From a virus, in IMG/VR virus record IMGVR_UViG_3300031787_000063, positions 15,718 to 79,717 of that record: DNA of 64,000 bases; one strand, written 5' to 3'. The translations under genes and the position numbers were made by a program. The notes beneath the pieces were generated by a model. The model was given only the letters and a program-made list of their open reading frames with translations, did no database searches and was not told the DNA's origin. This document shows positions 42,053 through 49,809 of this stretch, one piece after another; positions within the stretch are counted from its first letter, which is position 1; each line of letters opens with the position of its first letter.

Positions 42053-44998
42053 TTATGGAGTTGGTTTTAAAGATGCATTGAGTGTGATAATTCCTTCTAT
42101 GTCATCATTAGTGTATTGAAGTTGTCCAGAAGGTGTAGCACTTAGAGAAACTCCCGTAGGTCCCAATTCGGTACTAGGCAATCCATCTACGCTAAGATAT
42201 GTAATGGCATTAGAATAGTTCGAATCCCCCATTTCTACTCCTATTACTCCAGAATAAAATCTACCTTCGGAAATATAAGCAGTGGGTATTAAAGCTAATT
42301 GTTCATTTGATCCTGCATTCATTAAGGTATCTAGATAAATGTAATTAAATGCAGCATCAGGAATTCCTGTTAAAGCTGTAGTTCCATCTTGATTTAAAAA
42401 TCTTAGATTACCATTATAATAACTAGATTGATATCCTAAGTTAATTATGATGTAATTTTTAAATAAAACTATTGTAGTTGCTGCTGCCGGAATTTTTCCT
42501 CCATTAGAAGCATTTGCACAGAATGCTGTGTCCAGTGTTCCATCGGAATTTAATCTGATAAGATGATTTCTACCAGATCCCTTATATCCACTAAAAACTC
42601 CTCCGATTAATATTTTACCATTAGATTGAACTTTAACATTTCTAGTTTCGCTATTAAATGTGTACGAATCTACTGCATTAGTACAAAAAGCCTCATCTGT
42701 TGTTCCGTCAGAATTTAATCTAAGAAAATAACCTCTTCCGCCAATGTTATTATAATTATAGAATTGTCCTGCAACTAAAATTTTTCCGTCATTTTGAATT
42801 TCTACACAATATATTTGTCCAGAAAATTTATTACCATCAGAAGCGTTTATACAAAAAGATTCGTCCAATGTACCATCAAAATTCAATCTTACCAATCTGT
42901 TTCTATTAGAAAAATTATTATAACTAGTAAAATTTCCTGCAATTAAAATTTTTCCATCCGATTGAATCGCTATAGAATTTATCCTATCTATAAACTTATT
43001 TCCATCAGATGCATTGGAACAAAAAAAATCATCAAGAGTTCCGTCAATATTTAGCCTTACCAATCTGTTTCTATTAGGAACTCCTCCATAATCTGTATAA
43101 TCTCCAGCAACTAATATTTGACCATTAGGTTGAATTTTAATATCTCGAATTGTTGAAAATTTACTTTTTATAGTTTCACAAAAATCTATATCCAAAGTAG
43201 AATCGGAGTTAAATCTGACCAATCCATTATATCCAGAAATTGTATCATAACCAGTGAAAGTTCCTCCAATTAAAAATTTTCCATCCGACTGTATTGCTGT
43301 AGTCAGTACCGTGCTATTTATTTTAGCAGATTTACTAGAAACACTATCTGATAAAGTAGCATCTCTTGTTCCATTTGAATTTAAAACAGTTACAAAATTT
43401 CTATATTTAAAATTAGAGTAATTGGTAAAATTCCCCATTACCATAACTTTCCCACTACTTAACTCCAAAGCACATCTAGTTTCCGAATTAAATTTTAGAC
43501 CGTCAGTGGAATTTATTGTATAAGGAGCGTCTAAAGTTCCATCGGAGTTCAACGCTACAAAGTAAGTTCTAGTAGAGGCTCCTCCATAATTACTAAAACC
43601 ACCACATAACAAAATCTTACCATTTGATAACAATACAATTCTTCTTATGAAATCATAAGGACTCAGTTTATTAAATGTATTATCATAAAAAGTACTATCC
43701 ATAGTACCATCTGAGTTTATTCTTCTAAATCCAGCCGTGTTGTACGAACCATATACTTGTCCACCATAAAGTATTTTACCGTCAGGTTGCACTACTATAG
43801 AAAACACTGCAGGGTTAAGATTTTTATTATCCGAAGCATTTACGCAAAAATCATTATCTACTGTTCCGTCAGAATTTAATCGAATCATCCCACTTCTACC
43901 AGAAGTTCCAGCGTAGCTTGTAAAACCTCCTCCTACTAAAATTTTATTATCAGTCTGTAATGCTATTGTAATTACATTACCAGTAAACTTACCTCCGTTA
44001 GAAGCGTTAGCTATAAAGTCTGCGTCCGAAGTACCATCTGAATTTAAGCGGACCAAATATCCAGTAAAATCGCCACCCACAAGTATTTTACCATCTGACT
44101 GCTGAGCTACTGAAATTACGGTGCTACTAAATTTATTATTATCAGAAGCATTTACACAAAATGCGTTATCTACTGTACCGTCTGAATTTAATCGAACTAA
44201 TCTACTTCTACCAGAAATTCCACCATAAGTTTGAAAACTTCCGCCTACTAATATTTTTCCATCAGATTGGATTTCTATAGCATGAATTTCAGAATTAAAT
44301 TTATCATTAGAAGAAGCATTATTGCAAAATTCTACATCTAAACTACCATCTGAATTTAATCTAATTAGCCTATTAAAATTAGCAAATCCTTTTGAATTAG
44401 TGAAGGTTCCGCCAAGTAATATCTTTCCATCAGATTGTTTTTTAGCAAAGTTTATTACAGCATTAAAATCTGTAAAATCAGAAATAATTCTCAAATCGCT
44501 ATCTACTACGGGCATTTTTTTAGTAATAGAGTAATTGATATCAAAGCCGTATGAATTAGGGTTAAGTCGTGCGTTTTCAATATTTTGAGGGGAGCTTACA
44601 TTTGCAGAATATGCTTTTATAAAAGTAGCTGGGAGAGCTGGGTAATTGCCTGTACCTAGTGCTAAATCGAATTCTCCTGTAACTAAACTAGACCTTGGAA
44701 TTTGTAGGCTTCCTCCATCAAAGTCCGTAATTACCAATTTCTCAACAATAAAATCATCTCTAGAATCTGCTGTAACTAAAAATGTAGCAGTTGGAGAAGA
44801 TAAGGTTGCATTGAAATCCAAAAGCTCAGATTGACTACCAATCGTTGAAATGTATACAAGCCTAACACGATTCCAATTTGTAAGGTTTGAAAAATAAGGA
44901 TCTGCAAGTACTAGAGGATGTGCAGCAAGTTCTGTTTTATCTAATGTAAAAACTGCCGGGACACCTTTAGAAACAACTGGTTTTATGATTATTGACAT
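42053..44998 (-). CDS. Delta-60-repeat beta-propeller protein with shared N-terminal domain
   Basis: About 12 repeats of IQSDGKILVGGxF...LVRLNSDGTLDxxF. Confidence 0.85.
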   Translation of the reverse strand: MSIIIKPVVSKGVPAVFTLDKTELAAHPLVLADPYFSNLTNWNRVRLVYISTIGSQSELLDFNATLSSPTATFLVTADSRDDFIVEKLVITDFDGGSLQIPRSSLVTGEFDLALGTGNYPALPATFIKAYSANVSSPQNIENARLNPNSYGFDINYSITKKMPVVDSDLRIISDFTDFNAVINFAKKQSDGKILLGGTFTNSKGFANFNRLIRLNSDGSLDVEFCNNASSNDKFNSEIHAIEIQSDGKILVGGSFQTYGGISGRSRLVRLNSDGTVDNAFCVNASDNNKFSSTVISVAQQSDGKILVGGDFTGYLVRLNSDGTSDADFIANASNGGKFTGNVITIALQTDNKILVGGGFTSYAGTSGRSGMIRLNSDGTVDNDFCVNASDNKNLNPAVFSIVVQPDGKILYGGQVYGSYNTAGFRRINSDGTMDSTFYDNTFNKLSPYDFIRRIVLLSNGKILLCGGFSNYGGASTRTYFVALNSDGTLDAPYTINSTDGLKFNSETRCALELSSGKVMVMGNFTNYSNFKYRNFVTVLNSNGTRDATLSDSVSSKSAKINSTVLTTAIQSDGKFLIGGTFTGYDTISGYNGLVRFNSDSTLDIDFCETIKSKFSTIRDIKIQPNGQILVAGDYTDYGGVPNRNRLVRLNIDGTLDDFFCSNASDGNKFIDRINSIAIQSDGKILIAGNFTSYNNFSNRNRLVRLNFDGTLDESFCINASDGNKFSGQIYCVEIQNDGKILVAGQFYNYNNIGGRGYFLRLNSDGTTDEAFCTNAVDSYTFNSETRNVKVQSNGKILIGGVFSGYKGSGRNHLIRLNSDGTLDTAFCANASNGGKIPAAATTIVLFKNYIIINLGYQSSYYNGNLRFLNQDGTTALTGIPDAAFNYIYLDTLMNAGSNEQLALIPTAYISEGRFYSGVIGVEMGDSNYSNAITYLSVDGLPSTELGPTGVSLSATPSGQLQYTNDDIEGIITLNASLKPTP

Positions 44999-45265
44999 TC
45001 TTCTTCCTTAGAAAAGGTTCTTATTATATTTGTTATATTATTTCAGTAAATATTGATATATAAGTCATTACTATTTCGTACTCTTTATCAATAGCAGCAT
45101 CGTTCCGACCCGATTTTTTTTCGGCTGCTGTGACGCAGCGTAAGCTGCGGTATGCACTAAGTTGACAACGAGGTTGACAACCGTTTCTCAGTATATTTGT
45201 TTACATTGTAGATATATACTGTGCATAGATTATTATTCACCTATTCGACTTTTCCTAATAACTCA

Positions 45266-45274
45266 TGCTATAAT
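45266..45274 (+). promoter_or_regulatory. Extended -10 promoter TGcTATAAT
   Basis: Perfect extended -10 just upstream of AAGGAG RBS of ORF 45292. Confidence 0.7.
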
Positions 45275-45291
45275 GTTCATAAGGAGTACTT

Positions 45292-46648
45292 ATGAAAACA
45301 CCACTTAATATTGGCGATACTTACGAAGCTACTAGGCTGCTAAATCCAAAGAGATTCCCCAAGCAGGAAGATCCTCCTCGTTTTAAATTACTAGATATTT
45401 TTACAAAAGATAATACAGTATTGATAGAATTGGAAGATGGTACAAAGCAAGTAGAATCTGCTTGGTTTATAGAGTTCTATTGTAAGAAAGTATAACAAAG
45501 TTAATACGGTTTATTCTGCGGAGACAACATGGAGACAACATTTATTCTCATCGGAACACATCTTTTGTTTGCCGCATCCGTGTGCATAGTTTATACTATC
45601 TTTGAGGAGTCTATATGAACGATAAAGACAAAGAACCTTTTAAGTCTTGGTTTGAACAAGACAGAAAAGAATTTGAAGCAAGAGAGCCAGCAACATATAC
45701 AGACTCAGATGAGTGGTGTATGAGAAAAGGCTGGATAGCTGCTTGTAAATACAAAGATAAAGAATACTCTAACTTAATGGATGCTATGAGTAAGACAAGC
45801 CAGTACAATTTCAAACTCCAAGCTGAAAACAAAAAGCTACGTGAAGCTTTGCAATCAATCGGGTATTTTCATCTCAGACCAGAACAAGTAATCAGAACGG
45901 CTAGAGAAGCACTAAAAAAAGTGAACAAAGAATGATTTACATGCATAAGAAAAGCGGAGAACTTATCCTAATTAACTGGAGCAACGATATGGCTATACAC
46001 ATACAAAAAGAAGATAATCATGGAGTAATCTTCTATTCAGCATGGGTAGCTTTGGAAGATGAATATGAGTTCATTGGCGAACTGTAAAGGTGGTGCATAG
46101 ATGAAATACTTATCAATAATTTTTTTGGCTATAGCCTGTTCCCCTTATCACAAACCTCAAGTAGAGTATAGCGTACCTCCGGAGCTTTCAGATTGTAAGA
46201 TATTTACTATTTCTGATGGCTGGAAAGAATTGTATGTAGTCAAGTGTCCCAACGCTGATACGACCACTTCTTGGACCAGATCCTGTGGTAAGAATTGTAC
46301 CACTACAGAACATGTGACGGTGACTGAATGAGCCAGAAACCACAAAATAAAGTTAAACAAACTTCAGGTGGTATTGGAGTAGAACAGTATAATAAAGCTT
46401 TGGTTAGAGCTGCAATAGAAGCTACAAAGCTAACCTTTATAAAATCACCCTCTGACCGTCCTCTCGAAATAAATATTGTTGACTCTGTATATGCCGTTCC
46501 CGGAAAGGTTATGCTTGTCCCAAATGGCACAGAAGTCGATGATCCATCAACTCCATACAAAGATCGCATAAAGCAATTAGAGTACGAACTGGCTAAAGCT
46601 AAGAGAGCAAAGAAACATATTCTTAGTAATGTACGTACAGGTGCATAG
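45292..46648 (+). other. Cluster of small hypothetical ORFs (45292, 45615, 45932, 46101 lipoprotein candidate, 46328)
   Basis: ORF track plus hand-read 45932-46087; 46101 begins MKYLSIIFLAIAC and is Cys-rich. Confidence 0.6.
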
Positions 46649-46705
46649 ATATATAAACACCAATTCTGGCGTATGTATACTGCCCAAATCAAATTCAAAG
46701 TCAAA

Positions 46706-46740
46706 CCCACCTACCCCCCTTGGGGTGGGGAGGGGGGGGG
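46706..46740. repeat. C-tract followed by G-tract
   Basis: CCCACCTACCCCCC-TT-GGGGTGGGGAGGGGGGGGG. Confidence 0.9.
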
Positions 46741-46911
46741 ATACTTGACCAAAGCATTTCGCTCAGGATTAATACCTGACTGATTAACTCGGTCGGATAT
46801 AATACCTGACTAAACTAATAAGCTCGGATACTAATACCCGACAAAACCATTTTGCTCAACTAATATAATACCTGACTAAATCACTTCACTCAGTTATAGG
46901 GTATACCCGAC
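46741..46911. repeat. Six phased ATACYYGAC direct repeats
   Basis: Starts at 46741, 46772, 46802, 46834, 46868, 46903. Confidence 0.85.
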
Positions 46912-46924
46912 CAATCTAATCGGA

Positions 46925-46972
46925 TAGGCAAAGTTTACCTATCTTGTGCTTTTTTTTAAACCATGAGACAAT
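46925..46972 (+). promoter_or_regulatory. Sigma70-like promoter P1 with upstream dyad
   Basis: TAGGCAA-agt-TTACCTA then TTGTGC-N17-GACAAT. Confidence 0.55.
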
Positions 46973-47035
46973 GATTGTATCAGAAGGAATAAACCTTCTA
47001 AAAAGAAAAGGAAAAAAGAGATAACATTAAGACGA

Positions 47036-47083
47036 TAGGCAAAAAGTACCTAGCTTGAGTTATCAGAAAAAAAGAGATACAAT
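47036..47083 (+). promoter_or_regulatory. Sigma70-like promoter P2 with upstream dyad
   Basis: TAGGCAA-aaa-GTACCTA then TTGAGT-N17-TACAAT. Confidence 0.7.
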
Positions 47084-47089
47084 AGATAA

Positions 47090-47670
47090 GAGACAAGGAA
47101 ACGAGTCTCGATAATCAAACGAACGATTGACGCATAGCGGTAACACTATGATAAGATCGGGGTAGCAGTAAGGTCTGACCTGTAACGTGACCTGAGTGAG
47201 TACCATATCGGTACGGCTATGCAAAGTAGGAGTAATGCCCTACGATAGGTTTTGCGGTGGTGCATTTAGACTCGTCGAGTCAATCTATCAGTGAAGTCCA
47301 GCTTAAGCAACTGACTCGCTTTGACAAGCATAGGTACAGCGTTTGTCCCTTGTGGTGAGGGACTAAGTGAACAAAGTCACGAACTAACGCTTCGCAGTAT
47401 GTCGATAAGTACAGTAATCGAGTGTAGCAATGCGTCAACTATCAGGTTATAGATGATGCATCTCGTCTGGAAAGTATTACTGGAGATAAAGGGTATACTG
47501 TTTAGTGATTGAATGAGTACTGTATTGAGATTGTAGGGTACAAAAAGTATAGTTTTCCCTATCCTTTAGTAATGCAGTTTTATAGTTCGGTATTGCATAG
47601 GTAATCTTTACCTACGCTTTACTTGGTGTAAAGCTACATGGTACGATAGTCTCAGTACAGTATTCTTTTT
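47090..47670 (+). ncRNA. Putative large structured non-coding RNA (~580 nt), family unassigned
   Basis: No ORF of 60 aa or more; starts 7 nt after -10; many hairpins, long-range helices 47127/47430 and 47515/47648 with G-U pairs, ends in U-tract. Confidence 0.7.
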
Positions 47671-47826
47671 CTTACTGTATTAAAGAACGATTATTTTTAC
47701 GATATATCTATACTGGTTAAATTTTTAGGGTAATCGAGTCATGTTTTTTAAAACATTATTCAATTATCCCACAAATTCAACTAGTTACATTTTTGGGTAC
47801 AATGCCCAAAATGCATAGGAGGCATT

Positions 47827-48944
47827 ATGATTACAGTTTTTGTCAAGTTTAATAAACACTATGGGGTAGAGCGTATCTATCCTGATTGCCCGATTACGGA
47901 AATCTTTGCCGATATTGCCAAAACGAAAACTTTGAGCGAGAATGATTTAGTGAACATTGAGAAGCTCGGTTATAAAATCGAAGTCCGTCCCACTGTTTAC
48001 TATAAGTCCCCATGCGGTAGAGTTACTATTAACTTAGGAGAATAGTATGTTTAAAGTAGGTGCAGTATATCCCGATGGCAGTAAAGAAATAACTTACATC
48101 TCTAGTAGGTCTTTAGGTTGGATTCTTGCCATCATCAAGTCAAACAATAGAGAAGGCATCAGAACGCTTGTTCTAATAAAGGAGTAATATGAAATGTAAA
48201 GTGTATTGCTATGCAACATGGTCAGAATACTCAAGACTATTGTTCAAGTATAGAGGCATTAGAATCAGAGTACATAACTCAGGAGATATTAAATGAGAGT
48301 CTATGTGTATAGGAACATTCACCGAGGCGGTTACTCGGTTAAACATAGGGGCAAAGTGATTGCTCATGTTGAGTCAATCAGTCTTACTAATGTAAGATTT
48401 CTAGTAGGTCAGGCAGGTAATGCCAAAGTCCGACGAGAGAAGTCTAAGAATGTCCATGCAGGATGCTCAGGTATCTGGGTAGGTGATGTAAGTTTACTAG
48501 GTCAGTCAACTAAAGTGACATACAATCCTTACAAGTGGACTAGCTTTGTCAGGAAAGATGATGAGTCTAGTATTAAGTCGGCAAAGATTGCCGTAATTGA
48601 CGCATCTGGTATTGTTGCGATAGAATAATTATAGGAGTGAAGATATGCACCGAAAAGAATTTATATGTAGTACAGGTAGATATACTGCGGAGTACAAGTC
48701 AACCTATCGCTTAAGTTATAGGTATGAAATGCCTGACCGAGTGATTTACTTTACTCAAGAGGCGGTAGAAAATGCCCACCTTGATAACTACCTAGGTCAT
48801 GTAGTAGAATCATCTGGAGATTGGAAATGTGCAGGTTCTATCTCACATGATAAAAAACAATTACTTAGGGCAACAATTGCCTGTGGTACGCTTGAAAAAT
48901 GTAATACTGAAATGGTATTTGAATATGAAGTAGACTATGAATAG
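47827..48944 (+). other. Early small-ORF cluster (47827, 48293, 48645 and shorter ORFs)
   Basis: Strong AGGAG RBS before each; 48293 has VYRN-x-H...KNVHA...YNPYK pattern of a common phage hypothetical. Confidence 0.65.
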
Positions 48945-48952
48945 GAGGCAAC

Positions 48953-49531
48953 ATGGAATTATTGACGCAGAATGGTAAACTTAAGAAGACAAGTAAAGAA
49001 ACTGGACTCCGAGTATTTAACTTTGGTATCCCTGCTCAATCGACTTGCTTGTGGGCAGATAAATGTAAGAAGTATTGCTATGCATCTAAGGGTGCGTATA
49101 TCTGGTCAAACGTCAAGCCCGCTTTTGAGCGTAGACTTGAGGCAACTAAACAAGATAACTTTCCTCAGGTAATGATTGCCGAGATTGTCAAACGCAAAGC
49201 TGATGTTATCCGTATACATGATAGCGGAGATTTTTACTCAAGAGAATACCTTCACAAGTGGTTCAAGGTAATGGAGTCTTTACCTCAAGTAAAGTTCTAT
49301 GCCTACTCAAAAAGTCTACCATTACTTGATGGTGTAAAGTTACCTGCCAATTTCACTCTGATTAAATCTGAGGGCGGTAAACGTGATGATCTTATCAATC
49401 CTGACTCGGATCGTCATGCTCGTATCTTTAAAACCGAGGCGGAATTAATTGCCTCAGGCTATGCAAACGCATCAAACAATGATCTAATAGCAATAGGCAA
49501 CAATCCTAAGATTGGATTACTTGCCCACTAA
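48953..49531 (+). CDS. Gp88-like protein
   Basis: NGKL, C-x5-C-x3-CYA, RIHDSGDF, YAYSK. Confidence 0.7.
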   Translation: MELLTQNGKLKKTSKETGLRVFNFGIPAQSTCLWADKCKKYCYASKGAYIWSNVKPAFERRLEATKQDNFPQVMIAEIVKRKADVIRIHDSGDFYSREYLHKWFKVMESLPQVKFYAYSKSLPLLDGVKLPANFTLIKSEGGKRDDLINPDSDRHARIFKTEAELIASGYANASNNDLIAIGNNPKIGLLAH

Positions 49532-49545
49532 CAATAGGAGACAAC

Positions 49546-49809
49546 ATGAAAACTGAAGTAAAACAATTGAGAGAACTAGTCGGAAATAAAATCTTTTCGG
49601 TGGAGTTCGTGAAGAAAGATGGAAGCCTGAGAAAAATGGTATGCCGATTGGGTGTGAAGAAACATCTTAAAGGTGGAGAACTAGGGTATGATGCGGAGGC
49701 ATTGAATTACCTGACTGTTTTCGATCTACAATCTGAGGAGTATCGTACTATTAACGTCAACACTTTGAAGTCTATTACTTTTGAAGGTGTGACCTACGAA
49801 ATAGAATAA
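49546..49809 (+). CDS. WYL_2/Sm-like SH3 barrel protein
   Basis: FSVEFVKKDGSLRKM...VFDL...YRTIN. Confidence 0.7.
   Translation: MKTEVKQLRELVGNKIFSVEFVKKDGSLRKMVCRLGVKKHLKGGELGYDAEALNYLTVFDLQSEEYRTINVNTLKSITFEGVTYEIE

Follow-up and report, generated by a model that had tools for sequence, protein, structure and literature searches.

The stretch at positions 47090-47670 of the window (the whole piece of DNA analysed here, 64 kb long, bases 15718-79717 of a 79.7-kb IMG/VR phage record) raises the question of what a phage specifies in some 580 nt without a reading frame of 60 aa or more, and what the product does. An earlier note had read it as an immediate-early ornate RNA, possibly a scaffold or an anti-defence decoy, that it could assign to no family; this overall reading is partly supported, namely as regards a large plus-strand structured non-coding RNA outside the Rfam families. 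With high confidence, the region is regarded as a genuine, conserved, plus-strand structured RNA that is present in RNA libraries. The best explanation is a non-coding RNA covered by no Rfam family, some molecules of which may begin as far upstream as about 46980.

The region and its relatives

The longest open frames of the region measure 53 and 52 aa (minus strand) and 43 aa (plus strand), which confirms the lack of any frame of at least 60 aa, and the region is indeed GC-richer than its flanks (G+C 0.43-0.47 versus 0.30-0.39). All helices and motifs described earlier that were checked are in place. The minimum free energy is -177 kcal/mol for the plus strand and -148 kcal/mol for the minus strand, with z = -3.9 against shuffled sequences for both strands and none of 100 shuffles as stable; for the relative L002 z is -5.1.

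The statement that no family could be assigned held against Rfam 15: in an Infernal search of the whole window only two tRNAs passed, the best score between 46700 and 47900 was 18 bits to unrelated families (E above 1), and L088, L089 and L090 gave no consistent Rfam family. ROOL (RF03087), GOLLD, OLE, HEARO, raiA and the other Rfam 15 families did not reach the gathering threshold. A likeness of GAAGUCC to CR-I of RNase P was dropped, having no Infernal support. Elsewhere in the window (60948-61031) ARAGORN reports a tRNA-Val with the unusual anticodon AAC, whose Rfam tRNA score is only 43.8 bits.

By blastn the region matched none of 50,697 phage records, and no close isolate of the phage was found, the best terminase match being 27% identical. 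A second IMG/VR phage (L002) was reached via the neighbouring gp82-like gene, and three further loci (L088, L089, L090) came from one metagenome pattern scan. As L088 differs from L002 by one base, the comparative set comprises four distinct sequences (window locus, L002/L088, L089 and L090) in two subtypes; L089 and L090 were found with a pattern of the 3' domain, and invariance there is partly by construction. Type A (window locus and L090) aligns over its full length with a mean column identity of 84% (A7) and a BLAST identity of 73%, type B is made up of L002 and L089, and BLAST alignments between the types are confined to the promoter plus 5' hairpin and to the 3' part. Within IMG/VR the RNA occurs in only two records, that of the window phage and one related record; about 19 further close relatives of the neighbouring gp82-like protein were found in Logan, ENA and JGI. 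Searches for core-motif patterns in IMG/VR and in 185,579 species genomes returned chance matches only (among them L091-L097, located in coding DNA), with a later one yielding nothing, and two matches from a scan of genome contigs were rejected as chance by model R2. When model R1, which represents the 3' domain, was run on 80 loci of distant phages carrying a gp82-like gene, no homologue emerged, and neither phage genome contained a second copy of the domain.

Table 1. Features of the RNA locus and contigs from RNA libraries (positions in the window)
Feature	Positions	Strand	Remarks
Promoter unit P1 (predicted)	46925-46972	+	dyad TAGGCAA-AGT-TTACCTA 46925-46941
Promoter unit P2 (predicted)	47036-47083	+	dyad TAGGCAA-AAA-GTACCTA 47036-47052
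5' hairpin GAGAC-N10-GTCTC	47090-47109	+	GAGAC 47090, GTCTC 47105; loop motif GAAACGA
Central multi-helix domain (type A)	47110-47512	+	RNAalifold, window locus versus L090
Hairpin Ha, conserved loop CUUAAGCAA	47290-47320	+	common to both subtypes; 4 double changes
Three-way junction	47338-47391	+	covariance model across subtypes
Closing helix, 5' arm	47515-47536	+	pairs with 47644-47665
Promoter-like unit P3	47598-47647	+	inside closing helix; dyad TAGGTAA-TCT-TTACCTA 47598-47614
Closing helix, 3' arm	47644-47665	+	pairs with 47515-47536
Alternative hairpin	47654-47681	+	AGTACAGTA (47654-47662) pairs with TACTGTATT (47673-47681)
U-tract	47666-47670	+	directly after closing helix
Leader hairpin TTTGGG-TACAATG-CCCAAA	47792-47810	+	covaries in L089 (UCGGG/CCCGA)
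Conserved 72-aa ORF	47827-48045	+	RBS GGAGG 47818; present at 4/4 loci
RNA-library contig X10	47012-47701		depth over RNA 17.7, downstream genes 2.6-4.4
RNA-library contig X12	47033-47533		depth over RNA 7.7, downstream genes 2.5-2.8
RNA-library contig X13	47049-47529		depth over RNA 7.8, downstream genes 4.2
RNA-library contig X15	46991-47377		depth over RNA 6.3, no contig placed on downstream genes

Conserved architecture

The central domain contains the hairpins GTACC/GGTAC, GTAGG/CCTAC and CATAG/CTATG, a long-range pairing of CTATGC with GCATAG and a variable arm in the shape of a Y (47243-47290) whose architecture is retained in L090. For type A, RNAalifold predicted 96 pairs over the 430 nt at the 5' end, of which 12 carry changes in both partners (for example GUAGG/CCUAC to GGUGG/CCACC and GUGA/UCAC to GUAG/CUAC); for type B, 11 of 63 pairs carry double changes, including four consecutive pairs of one helix. 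Compensatory changes, the absence of which would have spoken against an RNA, keep the fold in L002/L088, L089 and L090. When the minimum free energy structure of a single sequence was laid on its partner sequence, 10-16 double changes were counted versus a mean of 4-8 in slid controls; owing to this modest enrichment the whole-molecule drawing is only partly right and is untrustworthy in detail.

Both subtypes share hairpin Ha and a three-way junction in which helix P (AGCGTT 47338 / AACGCT 47386) encloses, in this order, hairpin X (47345-47363), UAAGU, hairpin Y (47367-47380) and GAACU, the joiners UAAGU and GAACU being invariant in the conserved core. The helix closing the junction reads AGCGUU/AACGCU in type A, UAGUCUC/GAGAUUA in L002 and UAGCGGU/ACUGCUA in L089. 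A covariance model across the subtypes, trained on type A only (window 47284-47395 and L090), matched the homologous places in L002 (2886-2996, 43.1 bits, E 3.7e-8) and L089 (1514-1641, 25.9 bits, E 3.7e-4). In the four-sequence alignment of the core, which was fitted to the covariance model so that pairing is favoured, 99% of the cells are paired and 15 of 27 pairs show double changes, versus 0-3 in slid controls; the observed value was reached by none of 500 shuffles. The peripheral arms vary in sequence but keep their shape. Two subtypes with one common core point to the latter as the putative functional centre.

At the 5' end, a CCCUG/UAGGG stem encloses the same GAAACGA loop in L089, and the hairpin stem is weakened in L090. 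The RNA-library contig X15 carries G>T at 47105, by which the innermost pair of this hairpin is broken. For the proposed long-range pairing of TTGACGCAT (47127) with ATGCGTCAA (47430) the positions are correct, but the pairing is unproven by comparison, since it shows no variation wherever it occurs and L090 has lost its 3' partner.

The closing helix, for which 18-nt arms had been given and were recovered at 47515 and 47648, has 21 pairs with 96% of the cells paired in the four sequences, four double and eight one-sided changes. Its departures from Watson-Crick pairing, said to be G-U pairs on the plus strand, amount to 14 G-U cells versus one A-C cell and favour plus as the RNA strand. Consensus energies were -117.5 versus -86.2 and -85.0 versus -57.3 kcal/mol for the forward sequence versus the reverse complement. 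No open frame is conserved, and a conserved small ORF as the explanation of the region, which the earlier note had named as a way to refute it, is thereby removed; mismatches fall on the three codon positions as 49/49/55 and 51/41/44, with no 3-nt periodicity.

A run of four to six T follows the closing helix in all four sequences. The stable helix with its U-run looks like an intrinsic terminator, of an atypical kind in that the helix encloses 105-130 nt. The claim that the RNA ends in the U-tract stands as to the T-run itself, but one RNA contig (X10) extends 31 nt beyond it. The 3' arm AGUACAGUA (47654) has a second partner in UACUGUAUU (47673), a downstream copy of the 5' arm. The nine pairs of this alternative hairpin are standard throughout the comparative set, in which one double change (UA to AU, in L089) and four compatible single ones occur, and the hairpin and the closing helix are mutually exclusive through their shared 3' arm.

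Transcription signals, flanking genes and RNA libraries

The predicted promoters are of the sigma-70 type with a spacing of 16-18 nt. P1 has TTGTGC (46944-46949) and GACAAT (46967-46972) 17 nt apart, P2 has TTGAGT (47055-47060) and TACAAT (47078-47083), likewise 17 nt apart, and P3 has TTTACT (47618-47623) and TACGAT (47642-47647) 18 nt apart, with a GCTTTAC/GTAAAGC hairpin (47616/47628). In a promoter scan P2 matched the hexamers at 9 of 12 positions; P1 and P3 match at 8 of 12 each by hand count, below the cut-off of the scan. P2 is 81% identical to L002 2738-2817. In the 64 kb there are exactly three copies of the dyad TAGGYAA-N3-KTACCTA: those at 46925 and 47036 abut the -35 hexamers, and the third, at 47598, lies inside the 3' domain. 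A composite pattern (right dyad half, TT opening the -35 hexamer, spacer of 16-18 nt, TAnnAT) was found in the 64 kb at P2, P3 and one unrelated site, with 0.13 expected. Two to four more units of the same layout, about 100-110 nt apart, lie upstream at L002, L089 and L090; the unit at 245 of L090 has TTTACT as its -35 hexamer, away from any RNA structure. From this layout of dyads and hexamers across loci we infer that the RNA stands behind a tandem promoter array and that its 3' domain holds a third promoter-like unit.

The inner helices of the 3' domain had been taken for RNA structure. Their positions are as described, but the dyad and the GCUUUAC hairpin do not covary: across the sequences the dyad 'hairpin' of P3 departs only by unpaired cells, and the invariance of ACCTACGCTTTAC...GTAAAGC in L089 and L090 was imposed by the search pattern. 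Because covariation is lacking and the layout is that of the upstream promoters, the inner 3' domain (dyad, TTTACT, GCTTTAC hairpin, TACGAT) is probably a promoter unit acting at the level of DNA and not an RNA ornament. Imperfect promoter dyads (window 46925 and 47036; L002 2744; L089 1182, 1361 and 1847) always read GGCA...TACC and never GGTA...TGCC; as this mispairs (C-A) on the plus strand and would pair (G-U) on the minus strand, a protein-bound DNA half-site TAGGYA fits better than a plus-strand hairpin.

Just upstream of P1 (46739-46914) lie five or six phased copies of ATACYYGAC(T/A/C)AA, 30-35 nt apart, with ACTTGAC(C/T)AA repeats at the corresponding place in L002 and L089; these could represent degenerate promoter units, sites for a regulator or iterons. 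Between these repeats and the last upstream ORF there is a G/C-rich palindrome, CCCACCTACCCCCC-TT-GGGGTGGGGAGGGGGGGG (46706-46740), which is not followed by a T-run; a barrier, a genome end or a pac site are possible. L089 has a 41-aa ORF (1273-1398) with a strong RBS (AAGGGGAGGGG) between P1 and P2, where the window locus has a purine-rich spacer with a hairpin. The RNA had been placed at the head of the early region; it does head the unit that starts from the promoter array (about 46740-47083), but small plus-strand ORFs (45162-46783) precede it. Divergent from these, on the minus strand (42053-44998), a 981-aa protein with 11 DUF5122 beta-propeller repeats is encoded, probably a receptor-binding or tail-fibre protein.

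Downstream of the RNA the 72-aa ORF, whose product belongs to a viral family of unknown function, is found at all four loci, and the genes upstream differ between loci; at L090 the RNA comes after a 71-aa ORF and has no promoter of its own. TACAAT at 47798 was dropped as a -10 hexamer, since it falls in the loop of the covarying leader hairpin. Proteins encoded by the phage include RIIA-like, DUF932, gp82/gp88-like, WYL_2, ERF, PD-(D/E)XK, DnaB, class II RNR and ThyX ones. No reverse transcriptase was found among the 40 ORFs scanned, which leaves retron- or template-type readings without support. The WYL_2 protein (87 aa, 49546-49809, 2 kb downstream) has an Sm-like SH3 barrel (Pfam E 1.2e-7) and is conceivable as a nucleic-acid-binding partner of the RNA.

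The stretch was found in twenty public runs, mostly freshwater metagenomes, six of them metatranscriptomes. Logan contigs of four freshwater RNA libraries, from four studies that may be one campaign, were placed on 46000-49000. Over the RNA region (46991-47701) the contig depth is 2-7 times that of the downstream genes (6.3-17.7 versus 2.5-4.4), contigs giving no strand, ends or reliable level; the coverage gaps at 46000-46990 and 47702-47861 were left out of the evidence. The RNA had been said to start 7 nt after TACAAT. The motif is there, but it cannot be the sole start: all four contigs begin at 46991-47049, downstream of P1 and upstream of the P2 start, so that at least part of the transcripts must start at P1 or earlier. 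Contigs X12 and X13 have their ends no more than 4 nt apart, where the 5' arm of the closing helix finishes; this is a weak hint of a processing site, with RNase III as the first enzyme to consider.

Possible functions and known systems

The preferred reading, with a probability of about 0.45, is that of an abundant phage RNA acting early and in trans. Tandem sigma-70-type promoters, each abutted by a TAGGYA-N5-TRCCTA dyad, would transcribe it, and the 21-bp long-range helix with the U-tract would end it. The molecule would consist of the 5' hairpin and a multi-helix domain made up of the core (Ha and three-way junction) and of variable peripheral arms, of which there are two subtypes. It would be produced abundantly as infection begins and would act stoichiometrically, either as the RNA component of a ribonucleoprotein or by titrating a host or phage protein (sponge or decoy). 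P3, inside the terminator helix, would serve the downstream genes separately; its transcripts, starting near 47653, would be free of the 5' arm and hence of termination, and would open with the alternative hairpin. This reading is preferred because of the number of promoters, the terminator-like end, the depth relative to neighbouring mRNAs and the conserved junction core with variable arms, an organization typical of RNAs with tertiary structure; action in trans is itself a guess from abundance, promoter number and architecture. The comparison behind it covers only four distinct sequences, two of them obtained via the 3'-domain pattern. More tentatively, the RNA may represent a new class of large ornate RNA, mass-produced by tandem promoters at the onset of infection and acting in trans, for example by sequestering a host factor of defence or gene expression or by self-assembling, with a terminator that houses the promoter of the next genes and one 3' arm for two transcripts.

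Several of these observations also suit a role in cis, in which the early operon would have the RNA as its leader, attenuator or insulator. Together with its terminator, the RNA would set the flow from the strong tandem promoters to the 72-aa gene and beyond, with regulated readthrough, occlusion of P3 or processing as the route, and it would play no part away from its own transcript. The constant position upstream of the 72-aa gene amid changing upstream genes, the contig that passes the U-tract to 47701, the two conserved and mutually exclusive partners of the 3' arm and the promoterless element of L090 behind an ORF all fit such a role, and the first, second and fourth of these count against the preferred reading. 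We consider this reading less likely than the preferred one: some 420 nt of conserved multi-junction architecture far exceed the needs of known attenuators and put/nut-type sites, the alternative partner lies downstream of the U-tract and therefore cannot serve as an antiterminator, and a candidate antiterminator upstream (AGTACAGTA at 47408 with the 5' arm) was dropped, as it is not kept in type B. The library depth is greater over the RNA than over the downstream genes, which the promoter-like P3 can supply.

That a homo-oligomeric, RNA-only assembly is the functional entity, as in RNAs of the ROOL, GOLLD and OLE kind, which form such assemblies (PMC12286853), appears distinctly improbable. 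The size (about 530-585 nt) is that of ROOL, the RNA is phage-borne like ROOL and a multi-junction molecule with variable peripheral arms, and the CUUAAG of the Ha loop is self-complementary in three of four sequences (UUAA in all four); against this, ROOL, GOLLD and OLE stay unmatched in Rfam even at E up to 10, the tRNA genes are not adjacent, and the loop palindrome, rich in A/U, is disrupted in L090. Least credible, and very improbable in our view, is a region that serves mainly as DNA-level control (promoter array, operators, possibly an origin or packaging site) with incidental RNA folding. Dyads abut every promoter and recur in the 3' domain without covariation, imperfect ones have the C-A mismatch on the plus strand, and phased repeats and a palindrome lie just upstream, but these DNA motifs account for no more than some 50 nt of the 3' domain and leave the central 420 nt unexplained. 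Such a reading is largely contradicted by covariation, with plus-strand G-U pairs in many helices and matches of the cross-subtype model, and RNA contigs cover the region.

Among known systems, ROOL and GOLLD are similar in being ornate, multi-junction ncRNAs of more than 500 nt, often phage-borne and with transcription signals of their own, and ROOL has about the same length. Both frequently adjoin tRNA genes, whereas here the nearest tRNA (Met, 50648) is 3 kb downstream; their junction layout also differs, and the present RNA comes from a freshwater phage. The RNA is filed with the large ornate phage and bacterial RNAs (GOLLD, ROOL, OLE; PMC12286853) as a member of none of those families. 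The largest catalogue of phage structured-RNA candidates, a comparative prediction in IMG/VR phage contigs (PMC10690425), holds motifs of 29-151 nt with at least three unique sequences each; the present RNA is 4-20 times longer and occurs in only two IMG/VR records. HK022 put and lambda nut are likewise RNA elements that directly follow early promoters and precede a terminator; they are stem-loops of 30-70 nt, whereas the RNA here is about ten times larger and has no sign of antitermination. The T7 early region has the tandem host RNA polymerase promoters A1, A2 and A3 and a long untranslated leader with RNase III sites. Shared with this locus are several strong sigma-70-type promoters that open an early unit one behind the other, at intervals of about 100-125 nt, ahead of a long stretch without translation; the closing helix of about 20 bp could be an RNase III substrate, with contigs stopping at 47529 and 47533. 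The T7 leader, however, is no conserved multi-junction RNA closed by a terminator, and at the present locus the RNA is set apart from the genes by a terminator-like helix that holds a putative promoter. 6S RNA and CsrB/RsmZ are abundant RNAs that sequester a protein stoichiometrically. The likeness to them lies in the conjectured mode of action only, as Rfam is negative and the RNA has neither a 6S-like open-promoter bubble nor repeated GGA loops.

To our knowledge, very few bacterial or phage ncRNAs of more than 500 nt with conserved complex structure have been described, namely GOLLD, ROOL, OLE and HEARO, and each such large RNA raised new questions, RNA-only quaternary assemblies included. 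The candidate adds direct evidence of presence in environmental RNA, two subtypes with one core, and an unusual layout with a tandem promoter array, a putative promoter inside the terminator-like helix and a 3' arm of apparent dual use. Its rarity (four known sequences) slows access to its biology; the length of the RNA suits in vitro transcription and cryo-EM, by which its architecture becomes accessible without cultivation of the phage.
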